A stretch of 64,000 bases of DNA from an uncultured Alphaproteobacteria bacterium (lineage in GTDB: Bacteria; Pseudomonadota; Alphaproteobacteria; Bin95), in contig CALAHN010000081.1 in the NCBI GenBank assembly GCA_937891825.1, positions 6,700 through 70,699 on the forward strand, written 5' to 3'. The notes under the pieces are model-generated. The model saw nothing but the letters and a program-made list of their open reading frames with translations. It did not search any database and had not been told where the DNA came from. Numbering within the stretch: the first letter of the stretch is position 1; each line of letters starts with the position of its first letter. Shown here in pieces: positions 4,795 through 42,728 of this stretch. The translations under genes were made by a program, and so were the position numbers.

Positions 4795-6183
4795 CTATCC
4801 CGCGGGCGGCCGCGCCGCGGCTGGAATGGCGAGGTCGATGCGGAGGCCGGGGCCGGCGTCGCTGGCTTTCAGGACCGCGTTGTGACGCGCCGCGACGGCG
4901 CGCACCATCGACAGGCCAAGGCCGTTGCCGGGCTTGGCGCGGTCCGATTCCAGGCGCACGAACCGGTCGAATATCCGGTCCCGCTCCGTCGCTGGAACGC
5001 CGGGGCCATTGTCGACGACGGACAGCGTCGCGACGCCGTTCCGGACCGCTGTCGCGACGATGACGCGCCCGCCGGCGGGCGTGTACTTGATCGCGTTGTC
5101 GATAAGGTTGGCCAGCGCCTGGGCGAGCAGGCGGCGGTCGCCCTCGACGAAGGCGGCGCCTGTCGGCGCATCCGTCGTGAGCGCGATGCCGGCATCTTCG
5201 GCGACGGGCGCATAAAGCTCGACCACGTCCGCCACGATCGTCGCGAGATCGACGCGGTCGCTCGGGCCGTCGGCCGCGCCCTCCAGCCGTCCGATATCCA
5301 GCAGCGCGTTGAACGTCGCGAGCAAGGCGTCCGCGTCCTCGACGGTGCGCAGCAGGGCCTCGCGATAGGCCTGTTCGTCGCCTTCGCCCATCAAGGTCAC
5401 CTCGACCCTGGCGCGAAGCCGGTTGAGCGGCGTGCGGAGATCGTGGGCGATATTGTCGGAGACCTGGCGCACCGCCGTCATCAGGCTTTCGATCCGGTCG
5501 AGCATGGCGTTCAGGCTGGCGGCCAGCCGGTCCAACTCGTCGCCGGAGCCGTTGCGCGGCACCCGCCGCGTCAGATCGCCCGCCATGATCTGGCCGCTGG
5601 CCGCCGCCATGGCGTCGACCCGGCGCAGGGTCTGGCGGCTGATCAGCAAGCCGCCGACGACGCCAAGCGCCATTATGCCGGCGCCGGCCCACCAGAACGC
5701 CGCCTGCATCAACCCGACCAGTTCCACCCGCTGTTGCACATCGCGCCCGACCAGCAGGCGGAAGCCGCCCTGGATCGCAATCTCCCGGCCGCGCGCGCGG
5801 CGCTCGACCGCATCCTCGCCGACGCGCAGGTCATAGGCGAAGTTCATCCAGCCATCCTCGTCCGGCGCGGCTATCGGCCAGCCGTCGATATTGCCCGCCA
5901 GTTGCCGGTTGTCCGGGGCGGTAAGATTGTAGAGGCTCTGCTTCTGCTGCTTGGAGCGCTCGACCACGACCTGGGTCAGGCCGGGGATGCCCAGCAGGCG
6001 ATAGCGCTCATACAAGCCCTGGATTTCAGCGGCGATCGTCTCGTCGATCTGCTGCGCGGTAAACCCGGCGCTCCGCCAGTAGACAAGCCCGAGCAGGCCG
6101 GATGTCGAAAGGCCGAAGATCAGGAAATAGAAGAACGCCAGCCGAAAGGCGGTCGACCGGACAAGCTTGCGCAACCCCGACAT
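4795..6183 (-). CDS. Two-component sensor histidine kinase (2 TM, HAMP, HisKA, HATPase_c)
   Basis: 462 aa; H-box DNIAHDLRTPLNRL; N/G1/G2 boxes (NLIDNAIKYT, DNGPGVP, GNGLGLS). Confidence 0.85.
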   Translation of the reverse strand: MSGLRKLVRSTAFRLAFFYFLIFGLSTSGLLGLVYWRSAGFTAQQIDETIAAEIQGLYERYRLLGIPGLTQVVVERSKQQKQSLYNLTAPDNRQLAGNIDGWPIAAPDEDGWMNFAYDLRVGEDAVERRARGREIAIQGGFRLLVGRDVQQRVELVGLMQAAFWWAGAGIMALGVVGGLLISRQTLRRVDAMAAASGQIMAGDLTRRVPRNGSGDELDRLAASLNAMLDRIESLMTAVRQVSDNIAHDLRTPLNRLRARVEVTLMGEGDEQAYREALLRTVEDADALLATFNALLDIGRLEGAADGPSDRVDLATIVADVVELYAPVAEDAGIALTTDAPTGAAFVEGDRRLLAQALANLIDNAIKYTPAGGRVIVATAVRNGVATLSVVDNGPGVPATERDRIFDRFVRLESDRAKPGNGLGLSMVRAVAARHNAVLKASDAGPGLRIDLAIPAAARPPAG

Positions 6184-6190
6184 CGGGGCG

Positions 6191-6862
6191 CTAGCCGGTT
6201 TCGCTCAAGCGATAGCCGGCGCCGCGGACCGTGTGGAGCAATGGCTTGGCGAAGCCCTTGTCGATCTTGCTGCGCAGGCGGGAGATATGCACGTCGATGA
6301 CGTTGGTCTGCGGGTCGAAATTATACTCCCAGACATTTTCCAGCAGCATGGTCCGGGTCACCACCTGATCGGCGTTGCGGGCCAGATATTCCAGCAGCTT
6401 GAATTCCCGCGGCTGCAGGTCGATCCGGGCGCCGCCCCGTTGCACCCGGCGCGTCAGGAGGTCGATTTCAAGGTCGGCGACGCGCATGCCGGTCGGCGGT
6501 TCGTCGCCGCGCCGCCGGGTCAGGGCTTCGATCCGGGCGAGCAGTTCCGCAAAGGCATAGGGCTTGACCAGATAATCGTCGCCGCCGGCTTTCAGCCCCT
6601 TGACCCGGTCGTCGACCTGGCCGAGCGCCGAGAGGAACAGGATCGGCGTCGTATCGCCGGAAGCGCGCAACGTGCTGGCGGCGGCGAGGCCGTCCATGCC
6701 GGGCAGCATGCGGTCCAGCACGATGACGTCATAGCCGCTCGCAGCCATCATCACGCCGTCTTCGCCGGTGGCTGCATGGTCGGCGGTGTCGCCATGCTCG
6801 CCAAGCCCCTTGACCATGTAGGCGGCGGCTTCCCGATCGTCTTCGATAACAAGAATGCGCAT
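6191..6862 (-). CDS. OmpR-family response regulator (REC + winged helix)
   Basis: 223 aa; MRILVIEDD...VIVLDRMLPGMDG receiver, C-terminal DVHISRLRSKID wHTH; 7 nt upstream of kinase gene. Confidence 0.9.
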   Translation of the reverse strand: MRILVIEDDREAAAYMVKGLGEHGDTADHAATGEDGVMMAASGYDVIVLDRMLPGMDGLAAASTLRASGDTTPILFLSALGQVDDRVKGLKAGGDDYLVKPYAFAELLARIEALTRRRGDEPPTGMRVADLEIDLLTRRVQRGGARIDLQPREFKLLEYLARNADQVVTRTMLLENVWEYNFDPQTNVIDVHISRLRSKIDKGFAKPLLHTVRGAGYRLSETG

Positions 6863-6919
6863 GATGGCTTCCGTCCCCCCGGAACGGCGTCACGCGGCCG
6901 TCGGCCAGGATAACGCCTA

Positions 6920-6967
6920 GATCAAACCAACCTTAGGCGGAATCGCCTAAGGTTGGATAATTTGATC
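6920..6967. repeat. Palindromic intergenic repeat element, copy 1 (gatcaaa-ccaaccttaggcg-gaat-cgcctaaggttgg-ataa-tttgatc)
   Basis: Near-perfect 22-bp arms with 4-nt loop; homologous copies at 6998-7038 and 39630-39677. Confidence 0.7.
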
Positions 6968-6997
6968 GCTATCAATAAGATAGAACATGGACCGCGC

Positions 6998-7038
6998 TTA
7001 TCCAGCTTTCGGCGATTCCGCCAAAAGCTGGATTGATC
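6998..7038. repeat. Palindromic intergenic repeat element, copy 2 (inverted relative to copy 1; ttat-ccagctttcggcg-attc-cgccaaaagctgg-attgatc)
   Basis: Shares core GGCG-(GAAT/ATTC)-CGCC and flanking arms with copy 1, with compensating stem substitutions. Confidence 0.6.
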
Positions 7039-7136
7039 TGGCGGGCAGTATAGCGTTTGCCGCTTGGCATTACGTTAAAGACGGCGCTTGACCGATCCGC
7101 CCCCCGGCGCTGGCGCCAGGGGACAAATCCGTCGGA

Positions 7137-8636
7137 TCAGGATAGCGGCGCGGCGACGAAGCGGTCATTGCCGTTGATCCGGATCAGCAGCAGCACGGCG
7201 CTGCGGCCGGCTTCCTTCGCCATCCGGATCTTGTCGGCGGCGTCGCTCGGGTCGCTGACGGGATCGCCCGCGACCGCCAGCAGGACGGCGCCGGGGGCGA
7301 CGCCCTTTTCCCGAAGCGGACTATCGTCGGCAAGTGCGGCGATCAGCACGCCGGACGTATCGGCGCTGACGCCCGCGGCGCGCCTGGCGGCGGCGTCGAG
7401 CGGCGCGAGCGTCAGGCCAAGCGCGCCTGCGTTCGCGGCATCAGGCTGCGCCGTCGCCGCCAGCGTCGCTTCGTCAGGCAGGGTCCCCAGTTTCACCCGG
7501 AGCGTTTTCTCCTTGTTGTCGCGCCAGATCAGCAACTGCGCTGTGTCGCCCGGCGTGATGCCTGCGATGACGCGCGGCAGCTTCGGCATTTCGTCGATGC
7601 GCTCATCGTCGACCGCCAGGATGACGTCGCCGACTTTCAGCCCGGCCGCTTCGGCGGGGCCGCCGCTCGCGACGTGGGAGACGATTGCGCCTTCAGCCTT
7701 GTCCAGGCCGACGCCAGCCGCGATGTCGCTTGAGACGCCTTGGATCGAAACGCCGAGCCAGCCGCGCTGGACTGTTTGACCGGCCTTCAATTGCGCGATC
7801 ACGGACTTCGCCAGGTTGGACGGGATGGCGAAGCCGATGCCGACGCTGCCGCCGGTCGGCGAGAAGATCGCCGTGTTCACGCCGATGACTTTGCCTTCGA
7901 GGCTGAACGCCGGCCCGCCGGAATTGCCCTTGTTGATCGGCGCGTCGATCTGCAGGAAGTCGTCATAGGGTCCGGCGCCGATGGAGCGGCCGCGGGCCGA
8001 AATGATGCCGGTCGTGACCGTGTGGTCCAGGCCGAAGGGGTTGCCGACGGCGACGATCCAGTCGCCGACCTCGGCCTTGTCGCTATCGCCGAAGGCGACG
8101 TAAGGGAACGGCTTACGGCGCTCGACCTTGAGGAGCGCAAGGTCGCTGCGGCTATCGGCGCCGACAAGCGTGGCGTTGAGCTTCTCGCCATCCTGCAGGG
8201 TGACGATGATCTTTTCGGCGCCCGCCACCACGTGGTTATTGGTGACGACATGGCCTTCGGCGTCGATGATGAACCCGGACCCGAGCCCGGTACGGGGGCG
8301 TTGGGGGCCAGGCGCGCCTTGCGGCATCCGGTCGCCGAAGAAGCGTTCGAAGAATTCCCGCATGCCGGGCGGCAGGTCTTCGACCGACGGCGCTTCGGCG
8401 GCGCCGGCTTTGGCGGTGACTTCGATGTGAACGACGGCAGGAGCGACCGCTTTCACAACTGGCGAGAAGCTCGCCGGTCCGCCGGAGGGAGTGATCGCCT
8501 GCGCATGGGCTTGCCCGAATGTCGGCAGGCCATGACCCAAGGGCGCCAATGCGGCGCCGGCGGCCAGGCCGGCAGCAAGTACGGAAACCAGCCCGATACG
8601 CTTGACGAATGGACGCTGAGGACGGTCGTTGCCCAT
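7137..8636 (-). CDS. degP: DegP/HtrA (Do) family periplasmic serine endoprotease with two PDZ domains
   Basis: 499 aa; signal peptide; catalytic His/Asp/Ser motifs (VTNNHVV, DLALLKV, GNSGGPAF). Confidence 0.9.
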   Translation of the reverse strand: MGNDRPQRPFVKRIGLVSVLAAGLAAGAALAPLGHGLPTFGQAHAQAITPSGGPASFSPVVKAVAPAVVHIEVTAKAGAAEAPSVEDLPPGMREFFERFFGDRMPQGAPGPQRPRTGLGSGFIIDAEGHVVTNNHVVAGAEKIIVTLQDGEKLNATLVGADSRSDLALLKVERRKPFPYVAFGDSDKAEVGDWIVAVGNPFGLDHTVTTGIISARGRSIGAGPYDDFLQIDAPINKGNSGGPAFSLEGKVIGVNTAIFSPTGGSVGIGFAIPSNLAKSVIAQLKAGQTVQRGWLGVSIQGVSSDIAAGVGLDKAEGAIVSHVASGGPAEAAGLKVGDVILAVDDERIDEMPKLPRVIAGITPGDTAQLLIWRDNKEKTLRVKLGTLPDEATLAATAQPDAANAGALGLTLAPLDAAARRAAGVSADTSGVLIAALADDSPLREKGVAPGAVLLAVAGDPVSDPSDAADKIRMAKEAGRSAVLLLIRINGNDRFVAAPLS

Positions 8637-11484: not shown

Positions 11485-12894
11485 ATGGACTTGCTGCTGG
11501 CGTTGCTGCCGCTTGGGGCGGCGTTCGCGCTGATCCTGGCCGGCCGGGCGAGCATCGCCAATGCCGGCCTGATCGGCGCGGCGATCGCTGTCGGCCTGGC
11601 CGGGCTGGATGGCGGCGTCATCGTCGCGGCCGGCGCCGTCGCGCGCGGTCTCTGGATCGCGTGGCTGGCGATTTCGATCATCGTGACAGGCCTCTTCTTC
11701 CAGAAGGCGGCGCTGGCCGCGGCGCCGGACGTGTTCCGCCTCCCGGGCGGCTCCGCGTCGGATGCGCGGGCGCAGGCGTTCACGGCCGTGTTCCTGCTCG
11801 GCGTGTTCGTCGAAAGCGCCAGCGGCTTCGGCCTTGGCGCGGTCGCGGCGGCGGCTGTCCTTCAGGCCGGCGGCCAGGGCACGGTCCGGATGGCGGCGCT
11901 GGCGCTGCTCTCCCTGGCGCTGGTGCCCTGGGGCGCGCTCGCCATCGGCACGAGCATCGCGGCCGGGCTGACAGGATTTCCCGCCGCCGCGATCGGCGTC
12001 GGGAGCGCCTTTCTCTCCGTGCCCGTGCTGGCGACGGCGCTGGTCCTGTTCTGGCGCTGGGCGCCGGGTCCGGTCTCCCTCAAGGCCATGGCGGCCGAGA
12101 CGCTGTGGCTCGGGGCCTTGCTCGCCTTGCTCTGGGCGGCCAATCGCTTCGGCGCGGTCGATGTGGCCGGCGTGATCGCCGCGGGCGCGCTTTTCGCCCT
12201 GCGTTGGGCGATCGACCGGGCGCGGGACCGTCCGGCGCTGACGGCCGGGCCGTTTGCCCTCTTCGCGGTTTTCATCGTGGCGCTGCGCCTTGTCCCAGGC
12301 GTGACGCCCTGGCTTGAGGCGCTTTGGACGCTCCAGCCCTGGCCGACCCTGCCGCGGTTCGCGCCGGTCGCCCATGCGTCGGTCTGGCTGCTGGTCCTGG
12401 GCGCGGGCTTTGCGCTGAGCCAGGGGCTTCGCCCTCGCCGCCTCGCCGCGGCCGGGCAGGCGGCGCTCAAGGCCGCGCGCGTGCCGGTCCTGGTGACGGC
12501 GGGGTATATCGTGCTGGGCGAGGCGATGGCGGCGCGCGGCGCGCCCGCGGTGCTGGCGGATGCGGTCGCGGGCCTTGCCGGGGCCGGGGCGGCCTATGGG
12601 ACGCCGGTCTTCGCGGCGCTGGCGGGCTGGCTCACAGGCTCGAACGCGGCGGCGCACGGCATGCTCGTCGAACTGCAGGCGGCGCTGGGGAGCGCAGCCG
12701 GCGTCGATCCGCTCCGGGCGGTATCGGCTCAGAACGTGGTCGCGAGCGCCTACACCATGCTCTCGCCGATGCGCGTCGCGCTCGTCGCGGCGGCGCTGGG
12801 GCTGGCGGGGCAGGAGACCCGGATCGTCCGCCTCCTCCTGCCCTTCGCCCTTGCCGTCCTCGCCGTCGGCTGGGGGGCGATCGCCCTGAATTAA
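11485..12894 (+). CDS. LctP-family (L-lactate permease-like) membrane transporter
   Basis: 469 aa Ala/Leu-rich polytopic protein; FVESASGFGLGAVAAAAVL...ALVPWGALAIG matches the LldP FLEGAAGFGAPVAI...NTAPVAFGA region; shorter than typical LctP. Confidence 0.55.
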   Translation: MDLLLALLPLGAAFALILAGRASIANAGLIGAAIAVGLAGLDGGVIVAAGAVARGLWIAWLAISIIVTGLFFQKAALAAAPDVFRLPGGSASDARAQAFTAVFLLGVFVESASGFGLGAVAAAAVLQAGGQGTVRMAALALLSLALVPWGALAIGTSIAAGLTGFPAAAIGVGSAFLSVPVLATALVLFWRWAPGPVSLKAMAAETLWLGALLALLWAANRFGAVDVAGVIAAGALFALRWAIDRARDRPALTAGPFALFAVFIVALRLVPGVTPWLEALWTLQPWPTLPRFAPVAHASVWLLVLGAGFALSQGLRPRRLAAAGQAALKAARVPVLVTAGYIVLGEAMAARGAPAVLADAVAGLAGAGAAYGTPVFAALAGWLTGSNAAAHGMLVELQAALGSAAGVDPLRAVSAQNVVASAYTMLSPMRVALVAAALGLAGQETRIVRLLLPFALAVLAVGWGAIALN

Positions 12895-12927
12895 TCAGCC
12901 CATTGGCGCGGGCGCCAATGGGCTGAT
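12894..12927. terminator. Perfect 16-bp inverted repeat hairpin between convergent genes (candidate bidirectional terminator)
   Basis: atcagcccattggcgc-gg-gcgccaatgggctgat; directly abuts the LctP-like stop codon. Confidence 0.45.
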
Positions 12928-12979
12928 CGATCGCTAGCAGTCGCCTCAAAGCGCCGCGCTGTCGCCGGCGTGGGTCCCT

Positions 12980-21886: not shown

Positions 21887-21958
21887 CAAGCGCGCCGACG
21901 CGCCCCTATGTTCAAGCGCGTCGACGCGCCTCCAGCGTTCAGGCGCGTCGACGCGCCA
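21887..21958. repeat. Three tandem copies (period ~26-27 bp) of a 16-bp perfect palindrome GGCGCGTCGACGCGCC
   Basis: caagcgcgccgacgcgccc / caagcgcgtcgacgcgcct / caggcgcgtcgacgcgcca; preceded by IR ttgaac-gacg-gttcaa; spans convergent gap and last codons of the AstE-family gene. Confidence 0.7.
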
Positions 21959-37817: not shown

Positions 37818-38717
37818 ATGAATCAACGACGGCCGCGTGGCCGGAACAACAATAGCAATAATAATAACAATAATAATAACCGAGGGCGCAACCAAAGCCA
37901 ACGGAACCAATCGTTTGACAGCAACGGGCCCGAAGGGCGCGTGCGCGGTTCGGCGACACAGGTGCTTGAGCGCTACCTGGCGCAAGCCCGTGACGCCCAG
38001 GCGGCGGGCGACGGCGTTCTGGCCGAAAACTTCTTCCAGCATGCCGAGCATTACTATCGCGTGTTGAGCGCTGCGAACGCCCAGTTCGAGCAGCAGCAGC
38101 GGGACCGTCAGGGGCCGTATGACGAGCGGGATCGCCGCCCGCCCCGCAACGACGGCGGCGACGACAGCGACGATAATCGCGACGACAATCGCGACGATGG
38201 CTGGCAGGCCGACGACGCGCGCTCCGACGGCCGGAATGACGGCCGCAACGAAGGGCGCGGCGACAATCGCAGCGACAATCGCAATGACGGCCGTTTCGAC
38301 AATCGCGGCGACAGCCGGACCGAAGGCCGCAACGAGCCTCGCAATGACGGGCGTCAGGAAAGCCGGGGCGAAGGCCGCGGCGACAATCGCAACGACATGC
38401 GGGGCGATAATCGCGGCGAGACCCTGGATCACCAACGGGACGCGCAGCGCGACGACGGCGACCGCGACGATGGCGATCGCGCCGCCGGCCAGCAGATGGC
38501 CCACGACAGCGGCGCCGCGCCGGACGAAGCCCCGCCGCGCCCACGGGCGCGCCGCAAGGCCCCGGCGAAGTCCGAAGCTGCGGCGAGCGACGCCGCGCCC
38601 TCCCGCGAGGCTGGCTCCGGCGACGCCGGCGCCGATATCGATGTCGCGTTCCTGAAAGACGCCCCGAAGCCACGCCGCCGTCGCCGGCCGGTCGTCGAAA
38701 CCGAACCGGCTGACTGA
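37818..38717 (+). CDS. DUF4167 domain protein with poly-Asn tract and R/D/N-rich tandem low-complexity repeats
   Basis: 299 aa; MNQRRPRGRNNNSNNNNNNNNRGRNQ...VLERYLAQARDAQAAGDGVLAENFFQHAEHYYRV conserved N-domain, then ~25 iterations of (G/D)RNDGR(N/G)E-type units. Confidence 0.8.
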   Translation: MNQRRPRGRNNNSNNNNNNNNRGRNQSQRNQSFDSNGPEGRVRGSATQVLERYLAQARDAQAAGDGVLAENFFQHAEHYYRVLSAANAQFEQQQRDRQGPYDERDRRPPRNDGGDDSDDNRDDNRDDGWQADDARSDGRNDGRNEGRGDNRSDNRNDGRFDNRGDSRTEGRNEPRNDGRQESRGEGRGDNRNDMRGDNRGETLDHQRDAQRDDGDRDDGDRAAGQQMAHDSGAAPDEAPPRPRARRKAPAKSEAAASDAAPSREAGSGDAGADIDVAFLKDAPKPRRRRRPVVETEPAD

Positions 38718-38718
38718 G

Positions 38719-39555
38719 ATGCCGAAGCGCCTGACGCGGCGACAGCATCAAGACTATCTGACGAACGGGTTTGTCGCCCCGATCCAGGCCTTTACGCCGG
38801 CCGAGGCCGCAAGCTTTCGCCAGCGCTTCGAGGCCTATGAGGCCAGACATGGCGGCTGGCACGAACTCTCCAAGGGTCAGAAACTTTACCTGATCCAGAC
38901 CTGGGCCGCAGAGCTTGCCTCAGCGCCCGCGGTGCTGGATGCGGTCGAGGATGTTCTTGGCCCGGACCTGATGGTCTGGGGCCTCAGCCTGTTCGTGAAG
39001 GATGCCGGCGCGCCCGGCTTCGTCACCTGGCATCAGGATTCGACATATTGGGGCTTGAGCGAGCCCAAGGTCGCGACGGCATGGATCGCGCTTTCGCCGG
39101 CGACCAGGGCGGCCGGCTGCATGAAAATGCTGCCAGGCTCCCATCGCTTCGATCAGCAGCCCCACAAGGACACGCTCGCCGCCGATAATCTTCTGACGCG
39201 CGGCCAGGAAATTGCGATGGCCGTCGACGAAGCGGACGCGGTCTACTGTCCGCTGGATGCGGGCGCCCTCTCCTTGCACCATGTCCGCACGGTCCATGCT
39301 TCGGACCCCAATCGCGGCGACGACCGGCGGATCGGCGTCGCCATCCGCTACATCGCGCCGGATGTGCGACAGGTGAACGGCGAAAAGGATTCGGCCTGGC
39401 TGGTCCGCGGCGAGGACCGGCACGGCAATTTCATCCATGAGGTCCCGCCCAGGGCCGATATGGACCCAGCCGCCCTCGCAGAGCGCGACCGGATCATGCA
39501 ATTACGCCAGGGCGTCCTCTTCAAAGGCGTCGCAGGCGCCCCCGCGCGGTCCTGA
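38719..39555 (+). CDS. Phytanoyl-CoA dioxygenase (PhyH) family Fe(II)/2-oxoglutarate-dependent oxygenase
   Basis: 278 aa; starts 1 nt after DUF4167 stop; VTWHQDSTYW (HxD), later His ligand region. Confidence 0.8.
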   Translation: MPKRLTRRQHQDYLTNGFVAPIQAFTPAEAASFRQRFEAYEARHGGWHELSKGQKLYLIQTWAAELASAPAVLDAVEDVLGPDLMVWGLSLFVKDAGAPGFVTWHQDSTYWGLSEPKVATAWIALSPATRAAGCMKMLPGSHRFDQQPHKDTLAADNLLTRGQEIAMAVDEADAVYCPLDAGALSLHHVRTVHASDPNRGDDRRIGVAIRYIAPDVRQVNGEKDSAWLVRGEDRHGNFIHEVPPRADMDPAALAERDRIMQLRQGVLFKGVAGAPARS

Positions 39556-39629
39556 CCGCCTGCGTCGCGGCGGCTAGAGCATGACGCGCTCAAATGAGCG
39601 CGTGGTCCATCCTCTACCTTATTAATATC

Positions 39630-39677
39630 GATCAAATTATCCAGTCTTAGGCGTTTCCGCCTAAGACTGGTTTGATC
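39630..39677. repeat. Palindromic intergenic repeat element, copy 3 (gatcaaa-ttat-ccagtcttaggcg-tttc-cgcctaagactgg-tttgatc)
   Basis: 44/48 identical to reverse complement of copy 1 (6920-6967); the two stem differences are compensatory (aacc/ggtt vs agtc/gact). Confidence 0.7.
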
Positions 39678-39687
39678 TAGCCGTGCT

Positions 39688-40527
39688 TCAGCTTGCGAGC
39701 GCTTGGCCGGGCGGCGCTTCGCGGGGTTGAAAGAGGCCGCGGGTTGTCGGGTCGGCGACGAAATCGATTGCCGCGCCTGCGGCCGTCTCCTTGTCGCCAA
39801 GGTAAAGATAGCCGTCGGGATTGAGCTGCCGCGCGACAGAATCCAGCACCGTCTTGCGGCGGTCCTGGTCGAAATATGACAGGACGTTGCGGCAGAAGAT
39901 GACGTCGAAGCAGCCGATGTGGGATGGGTCGTCCAGCAGATTGAACTGCTCGAAGCGCACGGTCTTGCGCAGGTCCGACTTGATCCGCCAACGATCGCCG
40001 GCTTGCTTGAAGTGGGCGACCAGATGCCGGATCGGCAGGCCGCGCTGGACCTCGAACTGGCTGTATTCCCCAGCCCTGGCGTGGGCGAGCGCGCTTTCGG
40101 AGATGTCGGTCGCGAGCAACTGAACGCGCCATCCCGAGAGAGCCGCCTTGCGATCGGCGAGCAACATGGCGAGGGAATAGGCTTCCTGGCCGGTCGAGGC
40201 GGCGGCGGACCAGATCCGCAACGTCCGCGTCTCGGCGCGGGCGGCGAGCAGGGCCGGCAGCGCCGTCTCGCTGAAGTGGCGGAAGGGCGCGCCATTCCGG
40301 AAGAAGCAGGTTTCGTTCGTCACGATCGCTTCGACGACAGCGCGCACGGCTTCTGGCGCCCGGGTCGTCATGATGTGCTGGATGAGGTGGTTGATGTCGT
40401 CATGGCCGAACTGCTGGGCCACGGGCGCGAGGCGGGCGTCGGACGCATAGCCGCTATCCGCCTCCAGAACCTGCCCGCATTCCCGGGCGATCAGCGCGGT
40501 CAGAAATTTCTGGTGGGTTGGGGTCAT
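39688..40527 (-). CDS. cheR: Chemotaxis protein methyltransferase CheR
   Basis: 279 aa; N-terminal all-alpha domain + SAM MTase (IWSAAASTGQEAYSLAML, FCRNVLSYFD). Confidence 0.9.
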   Translation of the reverse strand: MTPTHQKFLTALIARECGQVLEADSGYASDARLAPVAQQFGHDDINHLIQHIMTTRAPEAVRAVVEAIVTNETCFFRNGAPFRHFSETALPALLAARAETRTLRIWSAAASTGQEAYSLAMLLADRKAALSGWRVQLLATDISESALAHARAGEYSQFEVQRGLPIRHLVAHFKQAGDRWRIKSDLRKTVRFEQFNLLDDPSHIGCFDVIFCRNVLSYFDQDRRKTVLDSVARQLNPDGYLYLGDKETAAGAAIDFVADPTTRGLFQPREAPPGQALAS

Positions 40528-42687: not shown

Positions 42688-42728
42688 GCCAGAGCAAGGG
42701 GCGCTCAAGGCGCGCGCGCCTTGCTCTG
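42688..42728 (-). terminator. Hairpin downstream of trxA containing perfect palindrome caaggcgcgcgcgccttg
   Basis: ~50 bp past trxA stop on minus strand; extended arms cagagcaagg...ccttgctctg; no clear U-tract. Confidence 0.3.

Follow-up and report, generated by a model that had tools for sequence, protein, structure and literature searches.

The window analysed here is a 64-kb stretch of DNA from an uncultured alphaproteobacterial lineage. On its minus strand, a DegP/HtrA-like serine protease gene is followed by an operon encoding an OmpR-family response regulator and its kinase. The spacer between degP and the regulator gene measures 274 bp and harbours two inverted hairpins. An earlier note on this DNA had named the three genes, and its calls are right according to their Pfam domains; the distances it gave from the hairpins to the regulator start and the degP stop are also correct within a few bases. 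The features of the locus are listed below, with H1 and H2 denoting the two hairpin modules of the repeat described in this work.

4795-6183, minus strand: kinase gene of the OmpR-family regulator (HAMP, HisKA and HATPase_c domains).
6191-6862, minus strand: OmpR-family response regulator gene, the downstream neighbour (Pfam Response_reg and Trans_reg_C).
6918-7040, no strand: the whole composite insertion in the degP-regulator spacer (nhmmer family profile and comparison with relatives' spacers).
6920-6967, plus strand: H1 module, copy 1 of the earlier note (covariance model R1, 79 bits, E 1e-17).
6968-6997, plus strand: linker GCTATCAATAAGA and 5' arm of H2, TAGAACATGGACCGCGC; H2 breaks off at this point (aligned with 19 full units).
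6998-7038, minus strand: inverted, 3'-truncated H1 of another subfamily, copy 2 of the earlier note (R1, 56.7 bits, E 5e-12 at 6991-7040, minus strand).
7087-7133, minus strand: native GC-rich hairpin directly 3' of the degP stop, a candidate degP terminator (fold of the spacer).
7137-8636, minus strand: DegP/HtrA-like serine protease gene, the upstream neighbour (Pfam Trypsin_2 and PDZ domains).

The description of two inverted hairpins at 6920-6967 and 6998-7038 in the earlier note was borne out. In copy 1, a 7-bp outer helix (GATCAAA/TTTGATC, 6920-6926 with 6961-6967) encloses a perfect 13-bp inner stem (6927-6939 with 6944-6956) with the loop GAAT and a 4-nt ATAA bulge. Copy 2 forms a 13-bp stem, CCAGCTTTTGGCG/CGCCGAAAGCTGG (7002-7014 with 7019-7031; 15 bp counting AT/AT), with the loop ATTC, and its outer TTTGATC arm is absent. 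A repeat search detected both internal palindromes as well as 42-nt arms at 6919-6960 and 6998-7039 that are 83% complementary. Folding, proposed as a check in the earlier note, gave hairpins far more stable than shuffled sequences, the z-scores ranging from -5 to -9 (minus strand: -9.1 and -6.9, 0 of 200 shuffles being as good). A 30-mer of copy 1 occurred nowhere in shuffles, even with up to three mismatches allowed. It had also been claimed that the partner base changes wherever the two stems differ, with at most a G·U wobble. Two of the three positions are indeed fully paired swaps (A-T to G-C and C-G to T-A), but the third is not fully compensatory: it leaves the claimed T.G wobble on the minus strand and a C.A mismatch on the plus strand.

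The degP-regulator spacer as a whole folds at z = -8.2 on the minus strand. The native hairpin at 7087-7133 gives only a weak match to R1 (E 0.77) and is not part of the repeat. A promoter scan of 6700-7300 found no promoter, and a hand-read TTTAAC-N20-CTATAC upstream of the element was rejected as one, its spacing being too long. Just past the degP stop, at 7070-7079 (minus strand TTTAACGTAA), lies a TTTAAC(N)TAAGCG-like motif that is kept in relatives' spacers (L065, L067 and L075), the rest of the spacer around it having diverged; it is possibly a conserved signal of the degP-regulator junction. Every relative has a hairpin of its own ahead of the regulator start, and in L074 there is a clear terminator with a T run.

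The hairpins of the spacer belong to a family of dispersed repeats. The canonical unit is a 101-bp body flanked by TA and made up of H1, a 13-nt linker and a GC-rich H2. H1 is a bulged hairpin with the layout GATCAAA-CCAACCTTAGGCG-GAAT-CGCCTAAGGTTGG-ATAA-TTTGATC, and H2 is likewise bulged (GACC), with the layout TAGAGCATG-GACC-GCGCGTCC-loop-GGACGCGC-CATGCTCTA. The boundaries of the unit are sharp, with TAGATCAAA at the start and CATGCTCTA at the end; the repeat ends with TAGAGCATGG at one side and TAGATCAAA at the other. Two candidate protein sites within the element were rejected. An IHF site in the linker (TATCAATAAGATA against WATCAANNNNTTR) has one mismatch and is not conserved in subfamily B, and a CcrM site in the loop (GAATC, matching GANTC) is lost in the subfamilies with a GAAA loop.

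About 36 copies were found in 201 kb of other contigs, apparently of the same organism. A metagenome scan with CCANNNNNNGGCGGAATCGCCNNNNNNTGGAT returned 21 exact-core matches on 20 contigs, in assembly ERZ888423 alone and all at 10-12x coverage. Covariance models identified ~31 H1 and ~27 H2 modules in the 201 kb of ERZ888423 contigs, and an nhmmer profile of the unit located 39 distinct sites in the DNA examined, including three modules in the window. Apart from the elements, the ERZ888423 contigs have no sequence in common with the window. A peroxiredoxin locus of ERZ888423 and the window loci co-occur in samples ERZ1283822, ERZ1283902 and ERZ964653, and the ERZ888423 organism therefore appears to be the same species as that of the window. 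The search for further copies suggested in the earlier note found many in these contigs, and the pairing of both hairpins is kept across subfamilies. From their density of ~1 site per 13-30 kb, a genome is expected to hold roughly a hundred copies or more. The copies are intergenic or abut stop codons, and occur as full units, solo H1, solo H2, tandem, head-to-head and truncated forms.

Because of the repeat, public assemblies of the organism contain breaks and chimeras. Eight public contigs stop within the element, either in the H1 loop or shortly past H1 (L004, L005, L006, L078, L085, L091, L107 and L108), and two chimeric contigs across the element (L117 and L118) join the peroxiredoxin gene to the flank or the H1 variant of another copy. 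Two further contigs deserve mention for the genes that they carry. In L088 (9349-9905), a 135-aa DUF4332 gene, the only small gene flanked in this way, lies between two copies of the repeat with their H1 ends inward, a layout that recalls a REP-flanked RAYT, the DUF4332 protein itself being no transposase. In L080, the stop-to-stop ORF that ends at the element starts, upstream of an alpha/beta-hydrolase-like gene and as judged by eye, with a fragment resembling an IS3-family integrase core.

Elsewhere in the window, the profile and covariance models matched the following stretches.

39575-39679, minus strand: second complete copy, comprising TA, H1, linker, H2 and TA (nhmmer positions 1-105, E 5e-26).
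42690-42728, minus strand: degenerate solo H2-like hairpin, CAGAGCAAGG...CCTTGCTCTG (R2, 29.4 bits, E 2e-7).
12886-12932, plus strand: borderline H1-like perfect 16-bp palindrome, ATCAGCCCATTGGCGC/GCGCCAATGGGCTGAT, within 12869-12952 (R1, 20.5 bits, E 0.012).

The complete copy at 39575-39679, overlooked in the earlier note, nearly fills the 132-nt gap between a convergent pair of genes, cheR-like (39688-40527, minus strand) and phyH-like (38719-39555, plus strand). It has the H1 stem CCAGTCTTAGGCG/CGCCTAAGACTGG with a GAAA loop and the H2 inner stem GCGCTCA/TGAGCGC, and shares 99% identity with the copy L099:984-1090, whose locus is unrelated. The hairpin at 42690-42728 differs from the canonical outer stem GCATGG/CCATGC by one paired swap (T-A to A-T) and is probably a decayed relic of the family. 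The palindrome at 12886-12932 begins at the TAA stop of the ORF 11485-12894 and continues with GATCGATCGCTAG; it could be a distant relative of the repeat or an ordinary terminator.

Two unrelated peculiarities of the window were seen along the way. Near the start of the ORF 37818-38717, an AAT/AAC codon run (aacaacaatagcaataataataacaataataataac, 37850-37880) forms an AT-rich, Asn-rich coding stretch that is unusual in a window of 68% GC, and just upstream of it TCTAGATCAATCCCGC resembles the left end of the repeat, without a hairpin. At 21890-21956 lie nested perfect GC-rich inverted repeats, GCGCGTCGACGCGCCT / AGGCGCGTCGACGCGC (16 nt at 100%), with a third arm at 21890-21904; their sequence is unrelated to the degP-regulator repeat.

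The family was also sought in wider collections. In Rfam 15, the window had no match at the gathering score, and 6850-7150 gave sub-threshold hairpin look-alikes only. A scan for the hairpin core in one GTDB genome per species (185,579 species) yielded 58 single chance matches, whose flanks are either non-palindromic or form unrelated hairpins, and no relative, so that this collection does not include the species. A scan of viral contigs returned no matches. When the spacer and the unit were compared by blastn with 72,556 plasmids, rhizobial megaplasmids included, only a 43-nt H2-like hairpin from Rhizobium was recovered, at one place per replicon in seven plasmids. On the Rhizobium beringeri plasmid pRlX3 (CP140838.1; L102:399-445), this sequence, AGCATGGAGCACCACGCGTCCACCTGGACGCGCCAATGCTCTA, is 88% identical to H2 and stands directly 3' of the TGA stop of a nitrile hydratase accessory gene. 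These matches hint at H2-like hairpins in Rhizobiales.

Comparison with relatives reveals that the hairpins were inserted into the degP-regulator spacer. Relatives whose regulator is 80–88% identical keep the order thrC-degP-regulator-kinase, and their spacers measure 57–107 bp with no trace of these hairpins; the H1 and H2 covariance models had zero matches over ~30 kb of the relatives' loci. Within the species, the identical 274-bp spacer is found together with the regulator in five other contigs. Presence/absence polymorphism within the species was sought at both window loci, and every site-spanning contig has the element.

Copies of the repeat have TA at both ends, and neighbouring elements in tandem or head-to-head arrangement have one TA in common. 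The base before the left TA is C or T in all copies, and a purine follows the right TA in 14 of 17. For the composite insertion of the spacer, the left TA lies at 6918-6919 and the right TA is degenerate (TG, 7039-7040). The peroxiredoxin gene provides a filled site (L109), ...AACCTG-TA-(101 nt)-TA-AGCATCGC..., and an empty site (L119) in a relative with a 94% identical peroxiredoxin, ...AATCTC-TAA-GCGCTAAC..., with the downstream terminator GCCGAGCGGCGGCGTTTCTTTT conserved in both. This comparison indicates that the element entered the TA of the TAA stop: the peroxiredoxin gene now stops at TA plus the first G of the element, and its native terminator has been left in place. The placement of TA on both sides is read from this one filled/empty pair, which insertion 3' of a TA by a TA-ended element would fit equally.

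Insertion at stop codons is the rule rather than the exception. Of 20 full-length or nearly full-length copies, 16 supply, through their terminal TAG, the stop codon of a long ORF whose third-position GC is high. Docking is split about evenly between the two ends of the element, which occurs in either orientation relative to the genes. All ten docked ORFs tested are real genes, with Pfam domains that reach the last residues. Since the body starts with G and ends with C, insertion at TAA or TAG rebuilds an in-frame TAG in both orientations, which accounts for most copies lying exactly at gene ends. The 64-kb window contains 45 YTAR sites, of which, by a rough gene call, ~4 (~10%) are at stop codons. 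As YTAR sites are rare and few of them lie at stops, docking is enriched, through targeting or through purging of harmful insertions. At both copies in the window (6918-7040 and 39575-39679), docking at a stop codon is absent. A true stop-codon-homing element, whose enzyme would read the hairpin shape and target the ends of translation or transcription, is conceivable, but we consider it unlikely; passive purging of harmful insertions is the alternative. If it did exist, such an enzyme would combine the structure recognition of REP/RAYT systems with the TA flanks of MITEs.

The stems of the family covary. Among 12 distinct variants of the H1 inner stem, 95.5% of cells are paired and 5 of the 13 pairs have changed on both sides, and a position can show as many as four pair types; none of 500 shuffles was as good, and pairing collapses to 19–45% when the register is slid. 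H2 is 94% paired, with both-side changes in 5 of 17 pairs. Paired double changes separate the subfamilies, and isolated single mismatches mark individual copies. The mismatches, counted as a test for constraint at the RNA level, have no strand bias (12 G.T against 17 A.C). The earlier note had concluded that base-pairing is under selection. This stands in the sense that the data fit selection for intact hairpins during propagation, but not in the sense of one-strand RNA upkeep after insertion. Paired changes between subfamilies, together with the decay of individual copies through single mismatches, suggest that the mobilising enzyme reads the shape of the hairpin, and only copies with intact hairpins would seem to propagate. 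An alternative origin for the paired changes is templated correction inside palindromes.

Seen against this family, the pair of hairpins between degP and the regulator gene is an unusual copy. The family profile matches 6918-6999 at unit positions 1-82 (E 1e-25) and, on the minus strand, 6998-7039 at unit positions 2-43. TA plus H1 (6918-6967, 50 bases) is identical to subfamily-A copies at other places, and the stem variant of copy 2 has no second occurrence in all the DNA examined. The 30 nt between the hairpins (6968-6997), missed in the earlier note, are part of the element as well. The window copy therefore consists of H1, linker and half of H2, to which an inverted, truncated H1 from a different subfamily is fused. 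The two inverted copies described in the earlier note are real as hairpins, but they are not the normal unit of the family; they constitute a rearranged derivative of H1-linker-H2. This architecture of two inverted H1 modules was found only here among the DNA examined, and the 42-nt inverted arms (83%) are a one-off rearrangement. As far as the modules let us infer, it most likely arose when two elements inserted tail to tail and the long H2-H2 palindrome between them was then lost by internal deletion.

Taken together, we are confident that both hairpins make up a single, rearranged copy of a small, mobile, non-coding repeat, and that they do not form a control site of the regulator. The family is new but of the known MITE/REP-like kind, an ordinary selfish intergenic repeat. 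One of the readings offered in the earlier note, a REP-type or miniature inverted-repeat element, is upheld by the dispersed copies, the insertion polymorphism, the TA flanks and the covarying stems. The element uses TA dinucleotides in a YTAR context as its target, leaving TA on both sides, and in the degP-regulator spacer it came to lie in a CTAG-like site. There it is probably a passenger; in a transcript shared with degP or the regulator, the terminator-like copy 1 (minus strand) could dampen read-through. In the mechanism that we propose, a trans-acting transposase would require the hairpins. The signals in the sequence point in two directions as to this enzyme. An IS630/Tc1-mariner-like or similar DDE enzyme is indicated by the TA flanks and the symmetry of the YTAR context, and a single-strand mechanism like that of REP/RAYT systems by the covarying hairpins and their mosaic arrangements. 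The ends of the element, TAGATCA and TAGAGCA, match at 6 of 7 positions (TAGAnCA) and are not long inverted repeats of each other. Ends of this kind are atypical for a classical miniature element derived from a DDE transposon. A phmmer search of 265 kb with an IS200 transposase query gave no match, a weak test given the approximate query.

A stricter REP/REPIN-type reading, in which a REP-associated tyrosine (Y1, HUH) transposase recognises the hairpins in single-stranded DNA and the terminal TAs reflect a cleavage or target preference instead of a DDE-type duplication, is possible but less likely than not. It would account for hairpins that covary across subfamilies and for the modular mosaic of solo, tandem and head-to-head copies. 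The window copy resembles a head-head heterodimer with a 37-nt spacer, and copies adjoin gene 3' ends and supply a TAG stop, as GTAG-tagged REPs do (PMC3733652). However, the tag is neither GTAG nor CGTC, since the TAG follows a variable pyrimidine of the flank (C or T), and it is not unpaired, its G being paired in H1 and the whole TAG in H2. Moreover, the preference for a purine beyond the right TA is suggestive of a YTAR target that is symmetric and double-stranded, and the 101-bp unit combines two unrelated hairpins instead of repeating a single REP. The same approximate search revealed no Y1 transposase in the 265 kb, which weighs little as a test, and the repeat could be tied to no RAYT gene.

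The element may instead have been co-opted here as an RNA that terminates or attenuates transcription between degP and the regulator operon, or that forms a stabilising hairpin in the leader of the regulator mRNA. We judge this improbable. On the minus strand, from which degP and the regulator are read, a simple terminator scan accepts copy 1 (a 13-bp stem followed by TTTGATCT), the one imperfect pair of copy 2 is a G.U and the spacer folds strongly, as noted above. The spacer is also 100% conserved in the five contigs of the species, but the species appears nearly clonal and this conservation says little. Set against these points, relatives manage with their 57–107-bp spacers and a hairpin of their own, mismatches in the family have no strand bias, docking happens in both orientations, and the peroxiredoxin locus kept its native terminator beside the insertion. 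For the locus-specific structured RNA under selection put forward in the earlier note, support is weak, given the absence of strand bias, the use of both orientations and the terminator kept at the peroxiredoxin locus.

OmpR/PhoB-family regulators classically bind direct repeats and not palindromes. The remaining reading of the earlier note, a palindromic operator through which the adjacent OmpR-family regulator or another dimeric protein would control the regulator-kinase operon, draws on the position 57–177 bp upstream of the regulator start and on the dyad symmetry, but it is effectively refuted, and to us highly implausible, because near-identical copies are scattered over more than 30 unrelated loci, most of them lying at gene 3' ends, and the orthologous promoters of relatives lack the element, compensatory stem changes being unexpected for a protein operator in any case. 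These palindromes upstream of a regulator should accordingly not be annotated as a regulatory site.

When comparing the repeat with known systems, the REP/BIME/REPIN class is similar in its short GC-closed hairpins, high copy number, complementary stem changes and placement a few bases from gene 3' ends. GTAG-tagged REPs likewise have complementary stem changes among their members, lie within 20 bp of ORF 3' ends, provide TAG stops with their termini and are arranged head-head, tail-tail or as heterodimers (Di Nocera et al. 2013, PMC3733652). The same study defines a REP by a conserved unpaired GTAG or CGTC tetranucleotide at one end. The present repeat resembles GTAG-tagged REP dimers in that its terminal TAG serves as the stop codon of flanking genes, and REP dimers more generally in its single, tandem, head-head and heterodimer arrangements with 20–100-bp spacers. 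Unlike REPs, BIMEs and REPINs, it has no unpaired GTAG/CGTC tag but a fixed 101-bp pair of unrelated bulged hairpins, and it has TA on both sides, as read at one insertion with a known empty site.

TA-duplicating bacterial MITEs include the Correia elements of Neisseria and RUP of S. pneumoniae, with an IS630/Tc1-mariner-type target of CTAG/TA. Like these, the repeat is a non-coding element of ~100 bp, present in tens to hundreds of copies that fall into subfamilies. It also has in common with them that it enters TA precisely in a YTAR/CTAG-like context, is flanked by TA at either side and varies in presence between close relatives. However, in place of long terminal inverted repeats it carries two internal covarying hairpins. 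To our knowledge, docking at stop codons, seen here in ~80% of copies, is not a described feature of Correia- or RUP-type families, and we know of no parent insertion sequence for the repeat.

[quoted passage not shown] According to a citation in PMC2573895, RIMEs were first noticed inside a two-component-system locus. By description, RIMEs as well as the Sm-repeats and A-B-C palindromes of Sinorhizobium are comparable to the present family as alphaproteobacterial intergenic mosaics of large palindromes. Mosaic combinations of palindromic modules in intergenic DNA, a trait of the RIME/BIME type, are present here too. The repeat thus mixes traits that are usually ascribed separately to REPs and to MITEs, which is not enough to change the understanding of either class. 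It provides a clean example of such an element in an uncultured alphaproteobacterial lineage, with two hairpins, TA flanks and ends that rebuild stop codons.
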